Position numbers and translations under genes: made by a program. Under the pieces are notes generated by a model that did no database searches, was not told the origin of the DNA, and saw nothing but the letters and a program-made list of their open reading frames with translations. A DNA stretch of 8,708 nucleotides from the IMG/VR virus record IMGVR_UViG_2703719347_000003; one strand, given 5' to 3'. Source of the stretch: a virus. Lineage: Duplodnaviria > Heunggongvirae > Uroviricota > Caudoviricetes. Below, piece after piece: positions 1 through 8,708 of this stretch (within the stretch, counting starts at the first letter, position 1; every line of letters starts with the position of its first letter).

Positions 1-321
1 GATGAAACAATGGCAATTTACACAGGCGTAGCGCCAGAAGGCAAAACGCTGGGGGCTGATAAAAATGGTAATCCTGCATGGATTGATATCCCGCCACTCT
101 CCGCTGAACAACAGATTATTCAGGCTGAACAGAAAAGAACGGTATTGCGTTCAATGGCTGATAAGGAAATAGTCTGGAGACAGGATGCTTTTGATGCGGA
201 AATCGCGACGGCAGAAGAAACCGCCGCGTTGTCTGAATGGAAAAAATATCGGGTCTTACTGATGCGCGTTGATACATCAAATCCCGTCTGGCCTACGCCT
301 CCGGGGGAGCAGGCCAATTGA
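1..321 (+). CDS. Tail fibre assembly protein (chaperone), 5'-truncated by the window edge; copy in the currently expressed orientation
   Basis: Frame is open from nt 1 (gat gaa aca atg...), so the gene probably starts upstream. The C-terminus ...EWKKYRVLLMRVDTSNPVWPTPPGEQAN carries the conserved Tfa-family motif (RVD-TS-x-WP-x-PP). Stop TGA at 319-321. Confidence 0.75.
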   Translation, partial: DETMAIYTGVAPEGKTLGADKNGNPAWIDIPPLSAEQQIIQAEQKRTVLRSMADKEIVWRQDAFDAEIATAEETAALSEWKKYRVLLMRVDTSNPVWPTPPGEQAN

Positions 322-913
322 TATCCGGCGCGGTGCTGGTATCAGTTGCCGTCACCGCGTCAATGTAATCCAGCACGACGTTAAGCCGGGTGGTTTCTGT
401 CTGCGTCAGTTTTCGCCCGGCCTGCAATTTCAGTTGAATCAGATTAATGGAAGCCATTGCAGTATCAATCAGTGACTGTCGCTGTGTTTCTGCCGCGCCT
501 ACTGCGGCGCTATGCTGTGCCTCAGTATCTGTCACCCATTTCTCACCATCCCATTCATCGTATGGCGTTAACGGGGCGACAGTGGTTGTGTTTTCAGGGT
601 AATCCCCCGGAGTGGTGATTTCTGCTGCCTCACGGGTTTCTGTGTTATAGACTGTCTCACCCCGATGGTCCGGCACGTACTCCCACGCGGTCAGGTCGGC
701 TGTGCGGCAAATTGCATAACCAGCCCGCCTTTCCCCGGGGGCATCAGTGCATGAATGTGCAGGAAGGCCAACGCCCACAGCCAGATATTCGGTTGACGTG
801 CAAAGGTATTCCCGCGTCTTATTATCGTAGCTGTGGACAACAACCTCTCCTGCAACTGTTGCCAGCCGCGATTCATTCAGCACCGCTGTAGTCATGGTTT
901 TCTTGCTCATCAT
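293..913 (-). CDS. Tail fibre assembly protein, alternative copy (Tfa') inside the invertible segment
   Basis: 206-aa ORF whose C-terminus ...LDYIDAVTATDTSTAPDINWPAPPEA matches the Tfa-family C-terminal motif. Its ATG (913-911) overlaps the TGA stop (912-910) of the upstream tail-fibre segment as ATGA, implying translational coupling. Confidence 0.8.
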   Translation of the reverse strand: MMSKKTMTTAVLNESRLATVAGEVVVHSYDNKTREYLCTSTEYLAVGVGLPAHSCTDAPGERRAGYAICRTADLTAWEYVPDHRGETVYNTETREAAEITTPGDYPENTTTVAPLTPYDEWDGEKWVTDTEAQHSAAVGAAETQRQSLIDTAMASINLIQLKLQAGRKLTQTETTRLNVVLDYIDAVTATDTSTAPDINWPAPPEA

Positions 914-1425
914 GCAGCCCTTACGATGTAGTTAAATGCAATGTTACGTGGCCTTGCATAACCCAGATACTGAATCCCCCAGGCTCCCACTGGAACGGGG
1001 TTCCAGATATGTTCTGTAGGTATACTTTTCGCTCTGAGAATATCTGAATTGGTTTCAGTTTTATCCCATCCCAGCAGGGCAATGTCGTTTACCGAAAACT
1101 GCACCACGCTGTCGGGTGATATATTGGCTTCCTGAACCAGATAAGAGCCTTTTTGCCACGACAACAACGTCCGGCTACTGTCCACTCCGCGCCCGTCATC
1201 CCAGCCACGAATAAATTCACCACGTAAATCAGGCAATATATTTGTCGGGTAAGCCTTTGCCAGTTCCGGGTATTCTTCAGCAGAAAATGCCGCCCCGTTG
1301 CATTTCAGCCAGCCTGTTGGCAGTGTGGCTGAAGGCCACGGAACAGGCACACCAACGGGTAATGCAGAGCCTTCTCCCAAACCAACGTTTAAGAAAATGC
1401 AGAGATTACGGCTAACTGGCATCAT
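910..1425 (-). CDS. Alternative tail-fibre C-terminal (receptor-binding) segment, promoterless in this orientation; becomes the 3' end of the tail fibre gene after inversion
   Basis: 171-aa ORF followed by and coupled to its own Tfa'. The frame is open only up to a stop at 1437-1435, and the 5' end contains the crossover site, so the listed ATG is probably not a real start. This is typical of Sv'-type segments of Mu, P1 and e14. Confidence 0.7.
   Translation of the reverse strand: MMPVSRNLCIFLNVGLGEGSALPVGVPVPWPSATLPTGWLKCNGAAFSAEEYPELAKAYPTNILPDLRGEFIRGWDDGRGVDSSRTLLSWQKGSYLVQEANISPDSVVQFSVNDIALLGWDKTETNSDILRAKSIPTEHIWNPVPVGAWGIQYLGYARPRNIAFNYIVRAA
1372..1397. other. 26-bp crossover site for the DNA invertase (gix/hix/cix/pix-like): TTCTCCCAAACC-AA-CGTTTAAGAAAA
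   Basis: Imperfect palindrome of two 12-bp half-sites around a 2-bp AA core, with the AAACC/GGTTT-like inner arms recalled for Hin-family sites (hixL TTCTTGAAAACCAAGGTTTTTGATAA). It lies about 55 bp upstream of the invertase gene and inside the 5' end of the - strand tail-fibre segment, where it encodes IFLNVGLGE. Confidence 0.6.
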
Positions 1426-1452
1426 CTCCGGTTTTTATTCAGGGGATCCATC

Positions 1453-2046
1453 ATGCTTATTGGCTATGTCCGCGTATCAACAAATGACCAGAACACGGAA
1501 TTGCAGCGTAACGCGCTGGAGTGTGCAGGATGTGAGCTGATTTTTGAGGATAAAATCAGCGGCACGAAATCCGACCGACCGGGACTGAAAAAACTGCTCA
1601 GAACATTATCTGAGGGGGATGCACTGGTGGTCTGGAAGCTGGACAGGCTGGGGCGTAGTATGCGGCATCTGGTCATTCTGGTTGAGGAACTGCGCGAACG
1701 CGGCGTTAATTTTCGCAGCCTGACGGATGCTATTGATACCAGCACGCCGATGGGGCGTTTTTTCTTTCATGTGATGGGTGCCCTGGCTGAAATGGAGCGA
1801 GAACTCATTGTCGAGCGGACACGCGCCGGACTGGAAGCAGCCAGAGCCAAAGGTCGTATTGGTGGCAGACGACCGAAACTCACCGCGAGTGAGTGGGAAC
1901 AGGTCGGACGGTTGCTGGCTGCGGGGGAATCTCGTCAACGTGTGGCGCTGATTTTTGATATTGGCCTGTCCACGCTCTATAAAAAATTCCCCGTATCAAC
2001 GACAAAGAATAAATTGTGTCATCCCTTAGCCAACCGGGACAAATAG
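1453..2046 (+). CDS. Site-specific DNA invertase, serine recombinase of the Gin/Pin/Cin/Hin family
   Basis: 197-aa protein starting MLIGYVRVSTNDQ... with the catalytic-serine motif YVRVST, then ...VVWKLDRLGRS...GRFFFHVMGALAEMERELI...GRIGGRRPKLT and a C-terminal helix-turn-helix region. Near-collinear with Gin and Pin as I recall them. A purine-rich RBS-like stretch (AGGGGA, 1441-1446) precedes the ATG. Confidence 0.93.
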   Translation: MLIGYVRVSTNDQNTELQRNALECAGCELIFEDKISGTKSDRPGLKKLLRTLSEGDALVVWKLDRLGRSMRHLVILVEELRERGVNFRSLTDAIDTSTPMGRFFFHVMGALAEMERELIVERTRAGLEAARAKGRIGGRRPKLTASEWEQVGRLLAAGESRQRVALIFDIGLSTLYKKFPVSTTKNKLCHPLANRDK

Positions 2047-2105
2047 CCTGACATCTCCGGCACAACTGAAAATATCACTCACCCATTAACCACGGAGTTA
2101 AACGG

Positions 2106-3296
2106 ATGAGTGACTATCATCACGGCGTGCAGGTGCTGGAGATTAACGACGGCACCCGCGTCATTTCCACCGTATCCACTGCCATTGTCGGCATGGTCTG
2201 CACGGCCAGCGATGCGGATGCGGAAACCTTCCCCCTCAATAAACCGGTGCTGATTACCAATGTGCAGAGCGCGATTGCAAAGGCCGGTAAAAAAGGCACG
2301 CTGGCGGCGTCGTTACAGGCCATCGCCGACCAGTCAAAACCGGTCACCGTTGTCGTGCGTGTGGAAGACGGCACCGGTGACGACGAGGAAACGAAACTCG
2401 CGCAGACCGTTTCCAATATCATCGGCACCACCGACGAAAACGGTCAGTACACCGGACTGAAAGCCCTGCTGGCGGCAGAGTCGGTAACCGGTGTTAAACC
2501 GCGTATTCTCGGCGTGCCGGGACTGGACACCAAAGAGGTGGCTGTTGCACTGGCATCAGTCTGTCAGAAGCTGCGCGCTTTCGGGTATATCAGCGCATGG
2601 GGCTGTAAAACCATTTCCGAGGTGAAAGCCTACCGCCAGAATTTCAGCCAGCGTGAGCTGATGGTCATCTGGCCGGATTTCCTCGCATGGGATACGGTCA
2701 CCAGTACCACCGCCACCGCGTATGCCACCGCCCGTGCGCTGGGTCTGCGCGCTAAAATCGACCAGGAGCAGGGCTGGCATAAAACGCTGTCCAATGTCGG
2801 GGTGAACGGTGTTACCGGCATCAGCGCATCTGTATTCTGGGATTTGCAGGAGTCCGGCACCGATGCTGACCTGCTGAATGAGTCAGGCGTCACAACGCTG
2901 ATTCGCCGTGACGGTTTCCGCTTCTGGGGTAACCGTACCTGCTCTGATGACCCGCTGTTCCTCTTTGAAAACTACACCCGCACCGCGCAGGTGCTGGCCG
3001 ACACGATGGCTGAGGCGCACATGTGGGCGGTGGACAAGCCCATCACCGCAACGCTGATTCGCGACATCGTTGATGGCATCAATGCCAAATTCCGAGAGCT
3101 GAAAACAAACGGCTATATCGTGGATGGCACATGCTGGTTCAGCGAAGAATCCAACGATGCGGAAACCCTCAAGGCCGGAAAACTGTATATCGACTACGAC
3201 TATACACCGGTGCCTCCTCTCGAAAACCTGACCCTGCGCCAGCGTATTACCGATAAATACCTGGCAAATCTGGTCACCTCGGTTAACAGCAATTAA
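2106..3296 (+). CDS. FI: Contractile tail sheath protein (P2 gpFI family)
   Basis: 396-aa ORF beginning MSDYHHGVQVLEINDGTRVISTVSTAIVGMV, as in P2-type sheath proteins. GGAG RBS at 2094-2097. Followed 12 nt later by the tube gene. Confidence 0.92.
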   Translation: MSDYHHGVQVLEINDGTRVISTVSTAIVGMVCTASDADAETFPLNKPVLITNVQSAIAKAGKKGTLAASLQAIADQSKPVTVVVRVEDGTGDDEETKLAQTVSNIIGTTDENGQYTGLKALLAAESVTGVKPRILGVPGLDTKEVAVALASVCQKLRAFGYISAWGCKTISEVKAYRQNFSQRELMVIWPDFLAWDTVTSTTATAYATARALGLRAKIDQEQGWHKTLSNVGVNGVTGISASVFWDLQESGTDADLLNESGVTTLIRRDGFRFWGNRTCSDDPLFLFENYTRTAQVLADTMAEAHMWAVDKPITATLIRDIVDGINAKFRELKTNGYIVDGTCWFSEESNDAETLKAGKLYIDYDYTPVPPLENLTLRQRITDKYLANLVTSVNSN

Positions 3297-3308
3297 GGAG
3301 CCTGACCG

Positions 3309-3827
3309 ATGGCAATGCCGCGCAAACTCAAGTTAATGAACGTCTTTCTGAACGGCTACAGCTATCAGGGCGTTGCAAAGTCCGTCACGCTGCCAAAACT
3401 GACCCGTAAGCTCGAAAACTATCGCGGTGCGGGAATGAACGGCAGCGCACCGGTAGACCTCGGCCTTGATGACGATGCGCTGTCAATGGAGTGGTCGCTC
3501 GGGGGCTTCCCGGATTCGGTTATCTGGGAGCTTTACGCCGCAACCGGTGTGGATGCTGTGCCGATTCGTTTTGCAGGCTCTTACCAGCGTGACGATACCG
3601 GCGAAACGGTGGCCGTCGAGGTGGTCATGCGTGGACGTCAGAAAGAAATCGACACCGGCGAGGGTAAACAGGGAGAAGACACTGAGTCGAAAATCTCCGT
3701 GGTCTGCACCTATTTCCGGCTGACGATGGACGGTAAGGAGCTGGTCGAAATCGACACCATCAACATGATTGAGAAGGTGAACGGCGTCGACCGGCTGGAG
3801 CAACACCGCCGCAATATCGGCCTGTGA
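3309..3827 (+). CDS. FII: Tail tube protein (P2 gpFII family)
   Basis: 172-aa ORF directly downstream of the sheath gene. AAGGAG RBS at 3294-3299 overlaps the FI stop. Size and position match P2 FII. Confidence 0.9.
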   Translation: MAMPRKLKLMNVFLNGYSYQGVAKSVTLPKLTRKLENYRGAGMNGSAPVDLGLDDDALSMEWSLGGFPDSVIWELYAATGVDAVPIRFAGSYQRDDTGETVAVEVVMRGRQKEIDTGEGKQGEDTESKISVVCTYFRLTMDGKELVEIDTINMIEKVNGVDRLEQHRRNIGL

Positions 3828-3834
3828 TTTTCAT

Positions 3835-3855
3835 CCGGTCAGCCTGGCTGACCGG
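3835..3855 (+). other. Perfect RNA hairpin (9-bp stem CCGGTCAGC / GCTGACCGG, 3-nt loop CTG) in the FII-E intergenic region
   Basis: Read directly from the sequence, 8 nt after the FII stop and 29 nt before the E start. No U-tract follows, so it is not a canonical intrinsic terminator. Confidence 0.5.
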
Positions 3856-3883
3856 TTAACCCCGATTCATAAGTGAGAAAACC

Positions 3884-4159
3884 ATGAACAAAGAAAATGT
3901 GATTACCCTGGACAATCCGGTCAAACGTGGTGAGCAGGTTATCGAACAGGTCACGCTGATGAAACCCAGTGCCGGGACGCTGCGCGGTGTCAGTCTGGCA
4001 GCGGTCGCAAACTCCGAAGTCGATGCACTGATTAAGGTGTTGCCGCGCATGACGGCACCGATGCTGACCGAGCAGGAAGTCGCCGCACTGGAACTGCCTG
4101 ACCTTGTGGCGCTGGCCGGTAAGGTGGTCGGTTTTTTGTCGCCGAACTCGGTGCAGTGA
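3884..4159 (+). CDS. E: Tail assembly chaperone (P2 gpE family), zero-frame product
   Basis: 91-aa ORF between the tube and tape-measure genes, with the slippery heptamer T_TTT_TTG near its 3' end. Confidence 0.88.
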   Translation: MNKENVITLDNPVKRGEQVIEQVTLMKPSAGTLRGVSLAAVANSEVDALIKVLPRMTAPMLTEQEVAALELPDLVALAGKVVGFLSPNSVQ

Positions 4160-4311
4160 CGTTTCCGAAAAATCTCTCGGTCGATGACCTGATGGCGGAT
4201 GTGGCAGTGATATTTCACTGGCCGCCATCAGAACTGTATCCCATGAGCCTGACCGAACTCATCACATGGCGCGAAAAGGCGCTCCGGCGAAGCGGAAACA
4301 CGAATGAGTAA
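3884..4311 (+). CDS. E+E': Tail assembly chaperone E+E', made by programmed -1 ribosomal frameshift at 4132-4138
   Basis: After a -1 shift at T_TTT_TTG the -1 frame stays open to TAA at 4309-4311, giving 142 aa by my count (84 aa from E, then 58 aa ...FVAELGAVTFPKNLSVDDLMADV...WREKALRRSGNTNE). The stop overlaps the T start codon at 4304. Confidence 0.75.
4132..4138 (+). other. Slippery heptanucleotide T_TTT_TTG for the E/E+E' -1 frameshift
   Basis: A classic X_XXY_YYZ motif in the E zero frame (GGT TTT TTG), placed so that the -1 frame yields a long extension. Confidence 0.7.
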
Positions 4312-6751
4312 CAATGTAAAATTACAGGTATTGCTCAGGGCTGTTGACCAGGCATCCCGTCCGTTTAAATCCATCCGCACAGCGAGCAAATCGCTGTCGG
4401 GGGATATCCGGGAAACACAAAAATCACTGCGCGAGCTGAACGGTCAGGCATCCCGTATTGAGGGATTTCGCAAGACCAGTGCACAGCTCGCCGTGACTGG
4501 TCATGCACTTGAAAAGGCACGGCAGGAGGCCGAAGCCCTTGCCACACAGTTTAAAAACACCGAACGTCCGACACGTGCTCAGGCGAAAGTGCTGGAATCC
4601 GCGAAGCGTGCGGCGGAGGACTTACAGGCGAAATATAACCGCCTGACGGATTCCGTTAAACGCCAGCAGCGGGAACTGGCCGCTGTGGGAATTAATACCC
4701 GCAATCTTGCACATGATGAGCAGGGACTGAAAAACCGTATCAGTGAAACCACCGCACAGCTTAACCGTCAGCGTGATGCGCTGGCGCGTGTCAGTGCGCA
4801 ACAGGCAAAACTTAACGCAGTCAAACAGCGTTATCAGGCCGGAAAGGAACTGGCCGGAAATATAGCCTCAGTGGGCGCTGCCGGTGTGGGGATTGCGGCG
4901 GCGGGAACGATGGCCGGAGTTAAGCTGCTGATGCCCGGTTATGAGTTTGAGCAGAAAAACTCAGAATTGCAGGCCGTGCTCGGAGTGGCAAAAGACTCCG
5001 CCGAAATGACCGCACTCCGCAAGCAGGCGCGCCAGCTTGGCGACAACACCGCCGCCTCGGCGGATGATGCAGCCGGTGCGCAGATTATCATTGCGAAAGC
5101 CGGCGGGGATGTTGATGCCATTCAGGCGGCAACGCCGGTCACGCTGAATATGGCGCTGGCGAACCGTCGCACGATGGAAGAAAACGCCGCCCTGTTGATG
5201 GGGATGAAATCCGCCTTTCAGCTTTCAAACGATAAGGTCGCTCATATCGGGGATGTTCTCTCCATGACGATGAACAAAACCGCCGCCGATTTTGACGGCA
5301 TGAGCGATGCGCTGACCTATGCCGCACCTGTGGCAAAAAATGCCGGTGTCAGCATTGAAGAAACCGCCGCAATGGTCGGGGCACTGCATGATGCAAAAAT
5401 TACCGGTTCAATGGCGGGGACGGGAAGCCGTGCCGTGTTAAGCCGCCTGCAGGCACCGACGGGAAAAGCATGGGATGCACTGAAAGAGCTTGGTGTGAAA
5501 ACCTCAGACAGCAAGGGAAACACCCGACCAGTATTTACCATTCTGAAAGAAATGCAGGCCAGTTTTGAGAAAAACCGGCTCGGTACTGCCCAGCAGGCTG
5601 AATACATGAAAACTATTTTCGGGGAGGAGGCCAGCTCAGCCGCCGCCGTGCTGATGACTGCCGCCTCAACCGGAAAGCTGGACAAACTGACCGCTGCGTT
5701 TAAAGCCTCAGACGGGAAGACCGCCGAGCTGGTAAATATCATGCAGGACAACCTCGGCGGTGACTTTAAGGAGTTTCAGTCTGCTTATGAGGCGGTGGGG
5801 ACTGACCTGTTTGACCAGCAGGAAGGCGCACTGCGTAATCTCACGCAGACGGCCACAAAGTATGTGTTAAAACTCGACGGCTGGATCAAGAAAAACAAAT
5901 CACTGGCGTCAACCATCGGCCTCATTGTCGGTGGCGCACTGGCGCTTACTGGCATCATCGGTGCCATTGGTCTTGTCGCCTGGCCGGTTATCACCGGCAT
6001 CAATGCCATCATCGCGGCAGCAGGCGCAATGGGGGCAGTCTTCACGACGGTTGGCAGTGCTGTTATGACCGCCATCGGGGCTATTAGCTGGCCGGTTGTG
6101 GCCGTGGTGGCCGCAATTGTCGCCGGGGCGTTGCTTATCCGTAAATACTGGGAGCCTGTCAGCGCATTCTTTGGCGGTGTGGTTGAAGGGCTGAAAGTGG
6201 CATTTGCGCCGGTGGGGGAACTGTTCACGCCACTTAAGCCGGTGTTTGACTGGCTGGGTGAAAAGTTACAGGCCGCGTGGCAGTGGTTTAAAAACCTGAT
6301 TGCCCCGGTCAAAGCCACTCAGGACACCCTGAACCGTTGCCGTGACACGGGGGTCATGTTCGGGCAGGCACTGGCTGACGCGCTGATGCTGCCGCTTAAT
6401 GCGTTCAACAAACTGCGCAGTGGTATTGACTGGGTACTGGAAAAACTCGGTGTTATCAACAAAGAGTCAGACACACTTGACCAGACCGCCGCCAGAACTC
6501 AAGCCGCCACGTATGGCCGCGGTGGTTATATTCCGGCGACCAGCTCTTATGCAGGTTATCAGGCTTATCAGCCGGTCACGGCACCGGCTGGCCGCTCTTA
6601 TGTAGACCAGAGTAAAAACGAATATCACATCAGCCTGACGGGTGGTACTGCGCCGGGGACACAGCTCGACCGCCAGTTACAGGATGCGCTCGAAAAATAC
6701 GAGCGGGATAAACGTGCGCGCGCCCGTGCCAGCATGATGCATGACGGTTAA
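4304..6751 (+). CDS. T: Tail tape measure protein (P2 gpT family)
   Basis: 815-aa ORF immediately after the frameshifted chaperone pair. The N-terminal third is coiled-coil-like (Q/A/R/K/E-rich); a long Gly/Ala-rich hydrophobic stretch lies at about nt 5900-6140. Confidence 0.92.
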   Translation: MSNNVKLQVLLRAVDQASRPFKSIRTASKSLSGDIRETQKSLRELNGQASRIEGFRKTSAQLAVTGHALEKARQEAEALATQFKNTERPTRAQAKVLESAKRAAEDLQAKYNRLTDSVKRQQRELAAVGINTRNLAHDEQGLKNRISETTAQLNRQRDALARVSAQQAKLNAVKQRYQAGKELAGNIASVGAAGVGIAAAGTMAGVKLLMPGYEFEQKNSELQAVLGVAKDSAEMTALRKQARQLGDNTAASADDAAGAQIIIAKAGGDVDAIQAATPVTLNMALANRRTMEENAALLMGMKSAFQLSNDKVAHIGDVLSMTMNKTAADFDGMSDALTYAAPVAKNAGVSIEETAAMVGALHDAKITGSMAGTGSRAVLSRLQAPTGKAWDALKELGVKTSDSKGNTRPVFTILKEMQASFEKNRLGTAQQAEYMKTIFGEEASSAAAVLMTAASTGKLDKLTAAFKASDGKTAELVNIMQDNLGGDFKEFQSAYEAVGTDLFDQQEGALRNLTQTATKYVLKLDGWIKKNKSLASTIGLIVGGALALTGIIGAIGLVAWPVITGINAIIAAAGAMGAVFTTVGSAVMTAIGAISWPVVAVVAAIVAGALLIRKYWEPVSAFFGGVVEGLKVAFAPVGELFTPLKPVFDWLGEKLQAAWQWFKNLIAPVKATQDTLNRCRDTGVMFGQALADALMLPLNAFNKLRSGIDWVLEKLGVINKESDTLDQTAARTQAATYGRGGYIPATSSYAGYQAYQPVTAPAGRSYVDQSKNEYHISLTGGTAPGTQLDRQLQDALEKYERDKRARARASMMHDG

Positions 6752-6765
6752 GGAGGTGACGAAAA

Positions 6766-7245
6766 ATGATGCTCGCGTTAGGTATGTTTGTTTTTATGCG
6801 CCAGACGCTGCCACACCAGACCATGCAGCGTGAATCAGATTATCGCTGGCCGTCAAATTCCCGTATCGGTAAACGGGACGCTTTTCAGTTTCTCGGTGTG
6901 GGTGAGGAAAACATCACGCTTGCCGGTGTGCTTTATCCCGAACTGACCGGCGGCAAGCTGACGATGACCACGCTCAGGCTGATGGCAGAGGAGGGGCGGG
7001 CGTGGCCGTTGCTGGATGGCACCGGCATGATTTACGGCATGTATGTCATCAGCAAGGTGAGTGAAACAGGGAGTATTTTCTTTGCAGACGGCACACCCCG
7101 GAAAATTGATTTTACGCTGTCGCTCACCCGCGTTGATGAATCACTGGCCGCGCTTTATGGCGATATCGGTAAACAGGCGGAGTCGCTCATCGGTAAGGCC
7201 GGCAGTATGGCGACCAGATTCACAGGTATGACGGGGGCGGGATAA
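6766..7245 (+). CDS. U: Tail protein U (P2 gpU family; tail/baseplate assembly)
   Basis: 159-aa ORF with AAGGAGGTGA RBS at 6750-6759. Its stop overlaps the D start as TAATG. Confidence 0.88.
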   Translation: MMLALGMFVFMRQTLPHQTMQRESDYRWPSNSRIGKRDAFQFLGVGEENITLAGVLYPELTGGKLTMTTLRLMAEEGRAWPLLDGTGMIYGMYVISKVSETGSIFFADGTPRKIDFTLSLTRVDESLAALYGDIGKQAESLIGKAGSMATRFTGMTGAG

Positions 7246-8408
7246 TGCTGGATGCGCTGACATTTGATGCAGGCAGCACGCTGACGCCGGATTACATGCT
7301 GATGCTCGACAGCAGGGATATTACCGGCAATATCAGCGACCGTCTGATGAGTATGACCCTGACGGATAACCGGGGCTTTGAGGCTGACCAGCTTGATATT
7401 GAACTGAACGATGCCGACGGGCAGGTCGGGCTGCCGGTTCGTGGCGCTGTCCTGACGGTGTATATCGGCTGGAAAGGTTTTGCCCTGGTATGCAAAGGGA
7501 AATTTACCGTTGATGAGGTTGAACACCGGGGCGCGCCGGATGTGGTCACCATCCGCGCCCGGAGTGCAGATTTTCGCGGGACGCTCAATTCCCGCCGGGA
7601 AGGCTCCTGGCATGACACCACACTCGGTGCGATTGTTGAGGCGATAGCCTCCCGTAACAAGCTGGAGGCCAGTGTCGCTCCGTCACTGGCCGGAATAAAA
7701 ATTCCACACATCGACCAGTCGCAGGAGTCTGATGCGAAATTCCTGACCCGTCTTGCTGAACGCAACGGCGGTGAGGTGTCGGTAAAAATGGGAAAACTGT
7801 TGTTTCTTAAGGCGGGGCAGGGGGTGACGGCCAGCGGTAAAAAAATCCCGCAGATTACCATCACCCGCAGCGACGGCGACCGTCATCATTTTGCGATTGC
7901 TGACCGTGGAGCTTACACCGGCGTAACGGCAAAGTGGTTACACACCAAAGACCCGAAGCCGCAAAAGCAGAAGGTAAAACTGAAACGCAAAAAGAAAGAA
8001 AAACACCTGCGCGCACTGGAGCACCCGAAAGCGAAACCGGTCACGCAGAAGAAAGCGCCAAAAGTACCGGAAGCGCGCGAAGGTGAATACATGGCCGGTG
8101 AAGCTGACAACGTTTTTGCCCTGACTACGGTATATGCCACGAAAGCACAGGCCATGCGCGCCGCTCAGGCGAAGTGGGATAAACTGCAACGGGGCGTTGC
8201 GGAGTTCTCCATCAGCCTTGCCACTGGTCGTGCTGATATTTACACGGAAACACCGGTCAGAGTGTCAGGCTTTAAGCGCGTCATAGACGAGCAGGACTGG
8301 ACAATCACTAAGGTGACACATTTTCTGAATAATAGCGGCTTCACGACGTCCTTAGAGCTTGAGGTCAGGCTTTCTGATGTGGAGTACGAAACAGAAGATG
8401 ATGAGTAA
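7245..8408 (+). CDS. D: Tail protein D (P2 late control gene D family; probable baseplate hub)
   Basis: 387-aa ORF translationally coupled to U. Position and size match P2 D. Contains an internal lysine-rich segment (about 7947-8087). Confidence 0.9.
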   Translation: MLDALTFDAGSTLTPDYMLMLDSRDITGNISDRLMSMTLTDNRGFEADQLDIELNDADGQVGLPVRGAVLTVYIGWKGFALVCKGKFTVDEVEHRGAPDVVTIRARSADFRGTLNSRREGSWHDTTLGAIVEAIASRNKLEASVAPSLAGIKIPHIDQSQESDAKFLTRLAERNGGEVSVKMGKLLFLKAGQGVTASGKKIPQITITRSDGDRHHFAIADRGAYTGVTAKWLHTKDPKPQKQKVKLKRKKKEKHLRALEHPKAKPVTQKKAPKVPEAREGEYMAGEADNVFALTTVYATKAQAMRAAQAKWDKLQRGVAEFSISLATGRADIYTETPVRVSGFKRVIDEQDWTITKVTHFLNNSGFTTSLELEVRLSDVEYETEDDE

Positions 8409-8489
8409 TGTTTTTATTTTATCTGTTTGTTTTATAAGGATAAATTAATTAAAATGGCACCATCAACAAAACCGGAAGAGGTGCTCGCG
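8409..8489 (+). promoter_or_regulatory. AT-rich intergenic region, probable ogr promoter and 5' UTR
   Basis: A short, strongly AT-rich stretch (TGTTTTTATTTTATCTGTTTGTTTTATAAGGATAAATTAATTAAAATGG) between the D stop and the ogr ATG. P2 ogr is known to have its own promoter. The exact -35/-10 elements cannot be fixed by eye. Confidence 0.35.
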
Positions 8490-8708
8490 ATGTTTCATTG
8501 TCCTTTATGCCAGCATGCCGCACATGCGCGTACAAGCCGCTATATCACTGACACGACAAAAGAGCGTTATCACCAGTGTCAGAACGTGAATTGCAGCGCC
8601 ACGTTCATCACTTATGAGTCGGTACAGCGATACATCGTGAAGCCGGGAGAAGTCCATGCCGTGAGGCCGCACCCGTTGCCGTCAGGGCAGCAAATTATGT
8701 GGATGTAA
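8490..8708 (+). CDS. ogr: Ogr, zinc-finger transcriptional activator of P2 late promoters
   Basis: 72-aa product MFHCPLCQHAAHARTSRYITDTTKERYHQCQNVNCSATF... with the CxxC...CxxxxC zinc-binding arrangement. Sits directly after D as in P2. The ORF-track start at 8427 is a TTG in the AT-rich leader and is probably not used. Confidence 0.88.
   Translation: MFHCPLCQHAAHARTSRYITDTTKERYHQCQNVNCSATFITYESVQRYIVKPGEVHAVRPHPLPSGQQIMWM

Follow-up and report, generated by a model that had tools for sequence, protein, structure and literature searches.

A probable two-state Gin/Cin-type invertible tail-fibre cassette in a P2-like Escherichia coli prophage

Gene content of the cassette

The window (the whole stretch analysed, 8,708 nucleotides of IMG/VR record IMGVR_UViG_2703719347_000003) opens inside a tail-fibre assembly gene, of which it contains the 3' part in expressed orientation (1-321, plus strand; Pfam Caudo_TAP 2e-26, PHROG 188 tail fiber assembly 9e-33). 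This G-like tfa comes after H-Sv. The window edge truncates it at the 5' end, leaving 106 codons and the stop; the ORF spans 10-321, with the reading frame open from base 1. The full-length tfa of relatives comprises 138 aa and is annotated directly after the fibre gene H (8905-9321 in relative L001). The minus strand carries Tfa', the chaperone of a silent fibre tip (293-913; Caudo_TAP 7e-32, PHROG 105 1e-89). Positions 293-913 form its longest ORF, and gene callers also use starts at 910 and 895. The start codon of Tfa' and the stop codon of Sv' share bases (ATGA), and at its 3' end Tfa' runs 29 bp into the other tfa, a difference from Mu and P1. Both chaperone genes lie at the positions and in the orientations given by the original prediction, which had been made from the sequence.

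Sv' (910-1384, minus strand) is a silent alternative C-terminal exon of tail fibre H, composed of a collar domain and the tip (Pfam Collar 2.7e-14, PHROG 523 1e-61). Its match to PHROG 523, tail collar fiber protein, covers profile positions 483-638 of 673, i.e. the C-terminal part. The minus-strand ORF extends over 910-1425 and is called as a gene of 171 aa by annotation pipelines; only 910-1384 belongs to the part that inverts, the ATG at 1425 falls beyond it, and Sv' possesses no start of its own inside the invertible segment. This ATG is immediately preceded by GGAG with no spacer, i.e. without a properly spaced ribosome-binding site, and the promoter scan found no site at threshold upstream of the minus-strand ORF. 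The predicted promoterless fibre C-terminus at 910-1425 thus stands as a Collar exon with no promoter-like site upstream, and is shortened to 910-1384 as the part that can invert. The sole promoter-scan match, at 1263-1235 (minus strand) inside Sv', corresponds to the number expected by chance and was dismissed. A terminator-like hairpin at 1414-1433 reaches only -4.9 kcal/mol and has a stem-breaking change in L001, hence it is not taken as a firm feature. NCBIfam yielded no match above its cut-offs.

The switch, or the 910-1425 ORF with its own ATG, could conceivably act at the level of the host, by yielding a free fibre fragment which blocks the receptors of other phages in the manner of e14 StfE2. 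Such an effect is reported for the e14 P segment, where StfE2 is made by PinQ-driven inversion (PMC12529663), and the calling of the 171-aa ORF as a gene would agree with it. The poor spacing of the ATG at 1425 and the result of the promoter scan on the minus strand speak against this reading, and we consider it very improbable. Furthermore, H and its fusions belong to the Ogr-dependent late operon, which is silent in the lysogen, and PADLOC gave no match to defence genes, in line with the earlier claim that the locus holds no defence-type cargo.

Crossover sites and extent of the segment

The right crossover site is a 26 bp element of gix/cix/hix type at 1372-1397, with the structure TTCTCCCAAACC-AA-CGTTTAAGAAAA (in full TTCTCCCAAACCAACGTTTAAGAAAA) and its exchange core AA at 1384-1385. 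It was identified by site scan, by its similarity to gix and cix and from the breakpoints in relatives. When 3 or fewer mismatches are allowed, a 19-nt version of the site is found a single time in the window and in none of 200 shuffles. The site is identical to Mu gixR at 17 of 26 positions and to P1 cixL (reverse complement) at 19 of 26, and lies 55 bp before the invertase ATG (54 bp in Mu). It had been predicted at exactly this position.

The window cuts the cassette, as expected: both the constant part of H and the left site are upstream of it. An inverted partner site had been predicted there, and all close relatives examined possess one, with cores TT/AA: it has the structure TTCTCGCATACC-TT-GGTTTGGGAGAA and is located around codon 272 of H (L001, L003, L005, L013 and L029, near-identical relatives). 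In the genome of the window, gene H would be expected to contain TTCTCGCATACCTTGGTTTGGGAGAA or a close variant, at a distance of about 1.95 kb from 1372-1397.

Of the invertible segment, the window shows positions 1-1384. Joining the upstream DNA of L029 to the window gives a whole segment of 1951 bp between cores, of which about 567 bp (the left site included) precede position 1. The segment consists of two C-terminal fibre exons with their own chaperones on opposite strands, and the left site is placed inside the fibre gene, where either exon is fused in frame. In silico exchange at the 2-bp cores of L001 links H to the minus-strand segment with the reading frame preserved (...LAYLGLGE joined to GSALPVG..., 433 aa), and the same 433-aa in-frame fusion results from the window's own sequence joined to L029 upstream DNA. 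The frame of H in these relatives is accordingly compatible with the minus-strand segment at the core; the two in-frame fibre products have lengths of 431 and 433 aa.

More than two crossover sites with three or more fibre tips would constitute a shufflon, as in plasmid p15B Min or the second EPEC P2-like prophage; a three-site version is reported in one P2-like EPEC prophage (PMC4272514), as opposed to the two sites here. However, window positions 1-2100 contain a single site, only two tips and two chaperones are present, and exactly two sites occur in all eight relatives scanned (L016, L002-L005, L012, L013 and L020; half-site, up to 1 mismatch) and also in L001 at looser thresholds. A multi-site arrangement is accordingly hardly credible.

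DNA invertase and probable enhancer

The predicted invertase gene (1453-2046, plus strand) is intact and encodes a serine DNA invertase of the Gin/Cin/Hin family of 197 aa (Pfam Resolvase 4e-52 and HTH_7 1e-12; full-length match to PDB Gin 3uj3, E=4e-93). It is 79.4% identical to Mu Gin, 79.2% to P1 Cin and 95.9% to the pro483 invertase. The protein comprises an N-terminal catalytic domain, with the catalytic Ser9 and Arg42, and a C-terminal HTH. Residues reported as conserved only in invertases that depend on Fis and the enhancer are Hin K47, R48 and K51 (helix B) and Q151, R154 and L155 (DBD helix 1) (PMC3798978). At the Hin-equivalent positions the invertase carries K46, K47 and R50 as well as Q150, R153 and L154, offset by -1 as in Gin. 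No sigma-70-like site for an invertase promoter reached the scan threshold.

A probable Fis-dependent recombinational enhancer is located at the 5' end of the invertase gene (1471-1542, plus strand); the assignment follows from homology to the stretch labelled as enhancer in the P1 record (cin nt 19-90), with which its position agrees. The stretch is identical to P1 in 58 of 72 positions and to Mu in 56 of 72, but DNA conservation alone does not show Fis sites, because the same stretch also encodes the conserved catalytic N-terminus. Two G-N13-C 15-mers, at 1474-1488 and 1523-1537, are shared with Mu and lie 49 bp apart. Inversion would presumably depend on Fis.

Position in the P2-like genome

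Canonical P2 (NC_001895) carries fun(Z) between the terminator after G and the pF promoter and has no invertase, in accordance with the original prediction. Positions 2015-2105 (plus strand) span the right-hand end of the replaced block together with the region of the late promoter pF (BLAST against P2 and P2 record annotation). A TGT-N12-CCA activator box is found at 2015-2032, and the P2 record annotates an activator site and a transcription start at matching positions. DNA homology to P2 resumes at 2026, within the last codons of the invertase gene, and window 2026-3999 is 97.6% identical to P2 (BLAST). The P2 gene order FI-FII-E/E'-T-U-D-ogr is present with high identity to P2 (ORFs and Pfam), and the late genes from FI to ogr are all open. 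This border, just before pF, is shared with the P2 Z/fun hotspot and bears out the predicted placement between G and FI on the right side. On the left the replaced block reaches beyond the G-FI interval: in a relative it begins at the 3' end of gene I and continues up to window 2026, thus also spanning H and G, and differs further from the hotspot in P2 by the lack of both fun(Z) and defence cargo.

Orientation of the segment in related genomes

Relatives were collected by exact-protein look-ups (Sv', tape measure and invertase); their identity reaches 98.7% at most along the full length and 99.8% along 1-1388, and a 63-nt exact pattern had no match in the genome contigs. Flipped and unflipped junction types both occur in complete E. 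coli genomes. L016 is colinear with an in-silico flipped L001 in a single 4200-bp alignment (98.95%), and L001 versus L016 and L013 versus L021 differ by inverted blocks of 1956 bp. L023 contains window 1-1388 in inverted orientation (99.78% identity), with a breakpoint in 1372-1388, and it is to this interval that natural inversion breakpoints map. In the flipped genomes L016 and L021 a fused H-collar gene is annotated, directly followed by Tfa' on the plus strand; together with the in-frame fusion this supports the view that inversion swaps the fibre tip along with its matching chaperone. Gene calls in L022-L026 and L028 likewise give fusions that contain a collar domain and measure about 424-445 aa. 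Among the eight contigs with the exact invertase, the collar tip is in the expressed position in six (only partly called in L028) and the gp53-like tip in two.

In this prophage family the segment therefore inverts between the two sites, and for the genome of the window the same flipping may be presumed. The invertase would bind the site at 1372-1397 and its inverted partner inside H, host Fis would act on the enhancer in the 5' end of the invertase gene, and strand exchange at the 2-bp cores would flip the 1951-bp segment. In the state seen here, H would consist of its constant part (about 277 aa) and the gp53-like tip, followed by the 138-aa chaperone which ends in window 1-321. After inversion H would continue in frame into the collar-domain tip (910-1384), followed by Tfa' (293-913), and virions from the two states should carry different receptor-binding tips. 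As the tips differ in their Pfam domain (Gp53-like_C versus Collar), different receptors are likely, and the two orientations may confer two host ranges.

The cassette could alternatively be a frozen relic of correct anatomy which no longer flips here, with the left site lost or mutated or the invertase not expressed, and with only the gp53-like tip being made. The left site lies beyond the window, the promoter scan gave no invertase site, and many related prophages are degraded, with ISEc22 in the invertase gene, an IS21-family element in gene D of L001 or, in L011, a loss of the fibre genes. Against such a relic, neither the right site nor the invertase ORF is damaged, the latter retaining every catalytic and Fis-contact residue, the late genes are open, and contigs with an identical invertase protein occur in both orientations, so that we regard it as improbable. 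We thus interpret window 1-2046 as belonging to a two-state invertible tail-fibre cassette of Gin/Cin type, of which it holds the right-hand two thirds, in a P2-like (Peduovirus) E. coli prophage, with a probability of roughly 0.9. The cassette is probably complete in this genome, judging from relatives that are 98-99.8% identical.

In sister prophages, such as the one in the lysogen CRE1493, ISEc22 disrupts the invertase and has removed its catalytic serine. Among these disrupted sisters, two genomes with 100% identical flanks still differ by inversion of the segment, and this points to flipping in trans by invertases that other resident prophages encode. Din-family enzymes can act across elements, as PinQ does on e14 (PMC12529663). 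That the orientation of the fibre switch does not depend on its own invertase alone is a tentative and rather unlikely idea. If true, the fibre type released by a P2-like lysogen would depend on its other prophages, and by analogy with PinQ and e14 the flipped products might also affect the sensitivity of the lysogen to other phages.

Comparison with known inversion systems

The Mu G segment with Gin and the P1 C segment with Cin possess the same order of constant fibre part, site, Sv-U, inverted U'-Sv', site and invertase. The invertase here is 79% identical to theirs, and the 26-bp site is of the same type and precedes the invertase gene by 54-55 bp, as it does in Mu. The present cassette differs from both in its P2-like carrier and in the length of its segment (1.95 kb versus about 3 kb in Mu). 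Its modules for fibre tip and chaperone lack homology to Mu S' and U': Sv' has no significant match to Mu S', and Tfa' only 27% identity to Mu U' in the C-terminal part (E=0.017). Mu homology of the cargo was therefore dropped, and the predicted likeness to the Mu G segment is valid for layout, enzyme and site only.

The same position (gene I/H to FI) and gene order are found in pro483 (NC_028943), Peduovirus magyaro (NC_041848, O157:H43 T22) and P2-like prophages of EPEC E2348/69. Pro483 is annotated with the same layout; its left site is identical and its right site differs by one base, whereas the alleles of the expressed-side tip and chaperone differ, and it matches only from window 289 onward (83-94%). 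Flipping of fibre tip and chaperone pairs by a Din-family invertase is likewise found in the e14 P segment with PinE, although e14, unlike the present prophage, is a lambdoid remnant, and also in the enterobacterial prophage Fels-2 with Fin.

The type of switch, an ordinary Gin/Cin-type inversion that swaps a fibre tip and its matching assembly chaperone, has already been described. The earlier description rests on the pro483 annotation, on sequencing that revealed inversion in EPEC prophages of the P2-like type (Goldberg 2014, PMC4272514) and on a 2024 preprint on Z/fun invertases, according to which the Z/fun hotspot often encodes a DNA invertase, with inversion of adjacent genes (10.1101/2024.10.15.618418). 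The significance of the cassette beyond annotation is thus small. It accounts for the truncated 'phage tail protein' and the two convergent chaperone genes which gene callers report here, and it suggests that the prophage can make two fibre types, which is relevant to host-range prediction and to the comparison of assemblies that differ only by the inversion. It is also a clean example of a P2 Z/fun slot with host-range machinery and not defence cargo, of a kind already noted in the literature.

Outside the P2-like phages, HK97 stf/tfa is 87.7% identical at the DNA level to window 289-1390, a stretch that covers Tfa' and Sv' and ends with the inner half of the crossover site. The HK97 module is presumably fixed, because no invertase is annotated under this match, whereas here it forms one of two switchable alternatives on a P2-type shaft.

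Late genes and fibre modules

The window's 8,708 bases make up the late right arm of a prophage of the P2 type. ORF and Pfam assignments place the sheath gene FI at 2106-3296, the tube gene FII at 3309-3827, E and E' at 3884-4159 and 4156-4311, the tape measure gene T at 4304-6751, U at 6766-7245, D at 7245-8408 and ogr in the stretch running to 8708. Phage P2 DNA is 97.6% identical to the window from 2026 onward (BLAST). Among public sequences, prophages of E. coli come closest; the relatives' loci L005 and L029 share 98.7% identity with the window across all 8,708 bases, and L001 shares 99.2% across 1-2100.

Upstream of FI, all five elements of the originally predicted fibre inversion cassette (Tfa, Tfa', fibre C-terminus, crossover site and invertase) are present. 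The window opens with the 3' end of Tfa, the last 106 codons of the tail-fibre assembly gene that serves the expressed tip (1-321, + strand; Caudo_TAP, 2e-26). A second, complete assembly gene, Tfa', occupies 293-913 on the - strand (Caudo_TAP, 7e-32; PHROG 105, 1e-89), and beside it lies the ORF of the silent tip, Sv' (910-1425, - strand), with a phage tail collar domain (2.7e-14). Sv' aligns only with the C-terminal part of long fibre profiles, e.g. positions 483-638 of 673 in PHROG 523. The Pfam domains of the two tips differ (Gp53-like_C and Collar), so the tips likely recognise different receptors. The convergent assembly genes share 29 bp where their 3' ends meet (293-321); both proteins end in a W-P-x-P-P motif, whose codons lie in or beside this overlap on opposite strands.

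At the DNA level, the silent module (Tfa' and Sv', 289-1390) shares 87.7% identity with stf/tfa from HK97, a lambdoid phage, and about 88% with a group of Klebsiella phages. The HK97 match extends only as far as the crossover site's inner half, which is where it should end if modules are exchanged at sites of this kind.

Crossover sites and in-frame fusion

The 26-bp right crossover site, TTCTCCCAAACC-AA-CGTTTAAGAAAA with core AA, is located at 1372-1397. Even with three mismatches permitted, the window contains a single copy of it and none of 200 shuffles contains any. Of its 26 positions, 17 agree with Mu gixR and 19 with P1 cixL (reverse complement); the site ends 55 bp before the invertase ATG (54 bp in Mu).

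The predicted inverted partner site upstream is present inside the tail-fibre gene H of relatives. Near codon 272 of L001's H (431 aa) lies TTCTCGCATACC-TT-GGTTTGGGAGAA, in the opposite orientation to the right site, with inner half-sites forming perfect inverted repeats and opposed cores (TT and AA). The same pair is found in L002 (phage pro483), L003, L005, L012, L013, L016 and L029, and the left site of L004 is a variant. When the L001 segment is inverted in silico at the cores, H is joined in frame after ...LAYLGLGE to GSALPVGVPVPWP..., giving a fibre of 433 aa. The window sequence combined with L029 upstream DNA behaves likewise (segment 1,951 bp; native fibre 431 aa, flipped 433 aa), so the fibre frame can indeed fuse with the minus-strand segment. 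The left site of the window's own genome is thereby presumed from relatives, which is the residual uncertainty.

In Peduovirus magyaro (L020, NC_041848), the 26-bp sites (2610-2635 and 4471-4496) are perfect inverted repeats over their full length, unlike those of the window's family, whose outer half-sites differ. Its invertase is annotated at only 495 nt.

Invertase and probable enhancer

The invertase gene (1453-2046, + strand) encodes a serine recombinase of 197 aa (Resolvase, 4e-52; HTH_7, 1e-12) that can be aligned over its full length with the crystal structure of Mu Gin (3uj3; E=4e-93). It shares 79.4% of its residues with Gin, 79.2% with P1 Cin and 95.9% with the pro483 invertase. The nucleophile Ser9 and Arg42 are kept, as are K46/K47/R50 and Q150/R153/L154, equivalents of Hin K47/R48/K51 and Q151/R154/L155, which are conserved only among Fis/enhancer-dependent invertases (McLean et al., PMC3798978).

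According to the P1 record annotation, the Cin enhancer lies at cin nucleotides 19-90. Its counterpart in the window, 1471-1542, is identical to P1 at 58 of 72 positions and to Mu at 56 of 72, and G-N13-C 15-mers at 1474-1488 and 1523-1537 are common to window and Mu. A recombinational enhancer here is probable by homology rather than demonstrated, because the same stretch encodes the conserved catalytic N-terminus. A terminator scan of 1-2200 yielded nine terminator-like hairpins, against 2.3 (sd 1.4) expected; the hairpin just upstream of the invertase start (1414-1433) is a weak one (-4.9 kcal/mol), and L001 does not conserve it.

Following the Gin/Cin scheme, invertase dimers would bind both sites, which would synapse with the Fis-bound enhancer; double-strand cleavage at the 2-bp cores, subunit rotation and religation would then swap the pair of tip and chaperone that the late operon carries behind the constant part of H. 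We infer that the switch depends on Fis, that it is active in this genome and that its two states differ in host range.

Both orientations in natural genomes

Both orientations, which the prediction proposed to seek in genome data, occur among public genomes of relatives. Queries for the predicted flipped junctions have full-length matches in complete E. coli genomes, including strain 720632 (L016; left 99.4%, right 97.6%). The annotated order in L016 is an H-collar fusion (433 aa), Tfa' (+), Tfa (-), a 'gp53-like domain' fragment (-) and a recombinase (+), and both chaperones have protein accessions identical to those of L001. L016 aligns with flipped L001 in one 4,200-bp block (98.95%), and with native L001 in three blocks, the middle 1,956 bp inverted (99.85%) with overlaps exactly at both sites. 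Contig L023 matches window 1-1388 inverted (99.78%) and 1372-8708 directly. Among eight contigs with exactly this invertase protein, the collar tip occupies the expressed position in six (L028 only partly called) and the gp53-like tip in two, as in the window. The anatomy, the in-frame fusion and a natural two-state polymorphism are thus observed.

L023 is 99.8% identical to the window over 1-1388, but 98.05% over the remainder (1372-8708); L029, the best full-length relative, is 98.7% identical throughout. This mosaic suggests that the cassette is exchanged among related prophages.

Many E. coli genomes of clinical origin (e.g. CRE1493, ESY00x and AR_01xx strains) have an invertase gene interrupted after about nt 34, equivalent to window ~1478-1486, by ISEc22 of the IS66 family (L013 4721-7167, L021 8309-10759; target duplication CAACAAAT(G)). 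With this insertion, the catalytic Ser9 is lost and the first candidate Fis site is cut in two. The flanks of L021 (EJN001) and L013 (CRE1493) are 100% identical including the IS, yet the 1,956-bp segment is inverted between them. Flipping seems to have continued without a cis invertase, presumably in trans by the invertase of another resident prophage; PinQ acting on e14 is a precedent (PMC12529663). These Ser9-less relatives in both orientations are the one mildly unexpected item, and it comes from relatives, not from the window.

Position relative to P2

Downstream of G, canonical P2 carries a terminator, then fun(Z) in reverse orientation, and next the activator site of pF and FI; no invertase lies in this G-FI interval, as had been stated. 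In the window, the invertase gene physically occupies the fun(Z) slot; the replaced block exceeds the G-FI interval, since in L029 P2 DNA homology ends inside gene I and the H protein is only ~33% identical to that of P2. The pF activator box (TGT-N12-CCA) at 2015-2032 overlaps the last codons of the invertase ORF, and P2 homology restarts at 2026. The ORF runs into P2-backbone DNA and stops inside the pF promoter region, about its last seven codons overlapping the Ogr-type activator box; the tail beyond ~aa 186 is probably a junction by-product. PADLOC models matched none of the four cassette proteins, and no further ORF of any size remains unassigned, in agreement with the predicted lack of defence-type cargo.

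Comparison with known systems

The original observation is confirmed and its interpretation supported. Likeness to the Mu G and P1 C segments holds for layout, enzyme and sites. It does not extend to the Mu fibre cargo: no significant match links Sv' to Mu S', and Tfa' is only weakly similar to Mu U'.

Invertible fibre cassettes in P2-like phages are already known. In the annotation of phage pro483, a fibre, a pair of assembly proteins, a fragment of a collar fibre and a 'DNA invertase' precede the sheath gene, and Peduovirus magyaro shares this layout. Whole-genome sequencing caught inversion in two P2-like EPEC prophages, one two-state and the other a three-site shufflon (Goldberg et al. 2014, PMC4272514), and the Z/fun hotspot often encodes a DNA invertase with adjacent genes inverted (Egorov et al. 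2024, bioRxiv 10.1101/2024.10.15.618418).

Loci L004 and L006-L009 (2500-13200; e.g. CP069093, strain TOE17) belong to a different P2-family prophage that shares the 171-aa Sv' ORF exactly and has a cassette of 93% identity. In these loci D and the baseplate genes lie on one strand and the FI-FII-E-T-U block on the other, with U rather than FI as the invertase's neighbour. Decay is visible in related prophages: gene D of L001 is interrupted by ISEc12, a member of the IS21 family (17316-19897), and IS elements have eliminated the entire fibre region of L011 (2178-5549).
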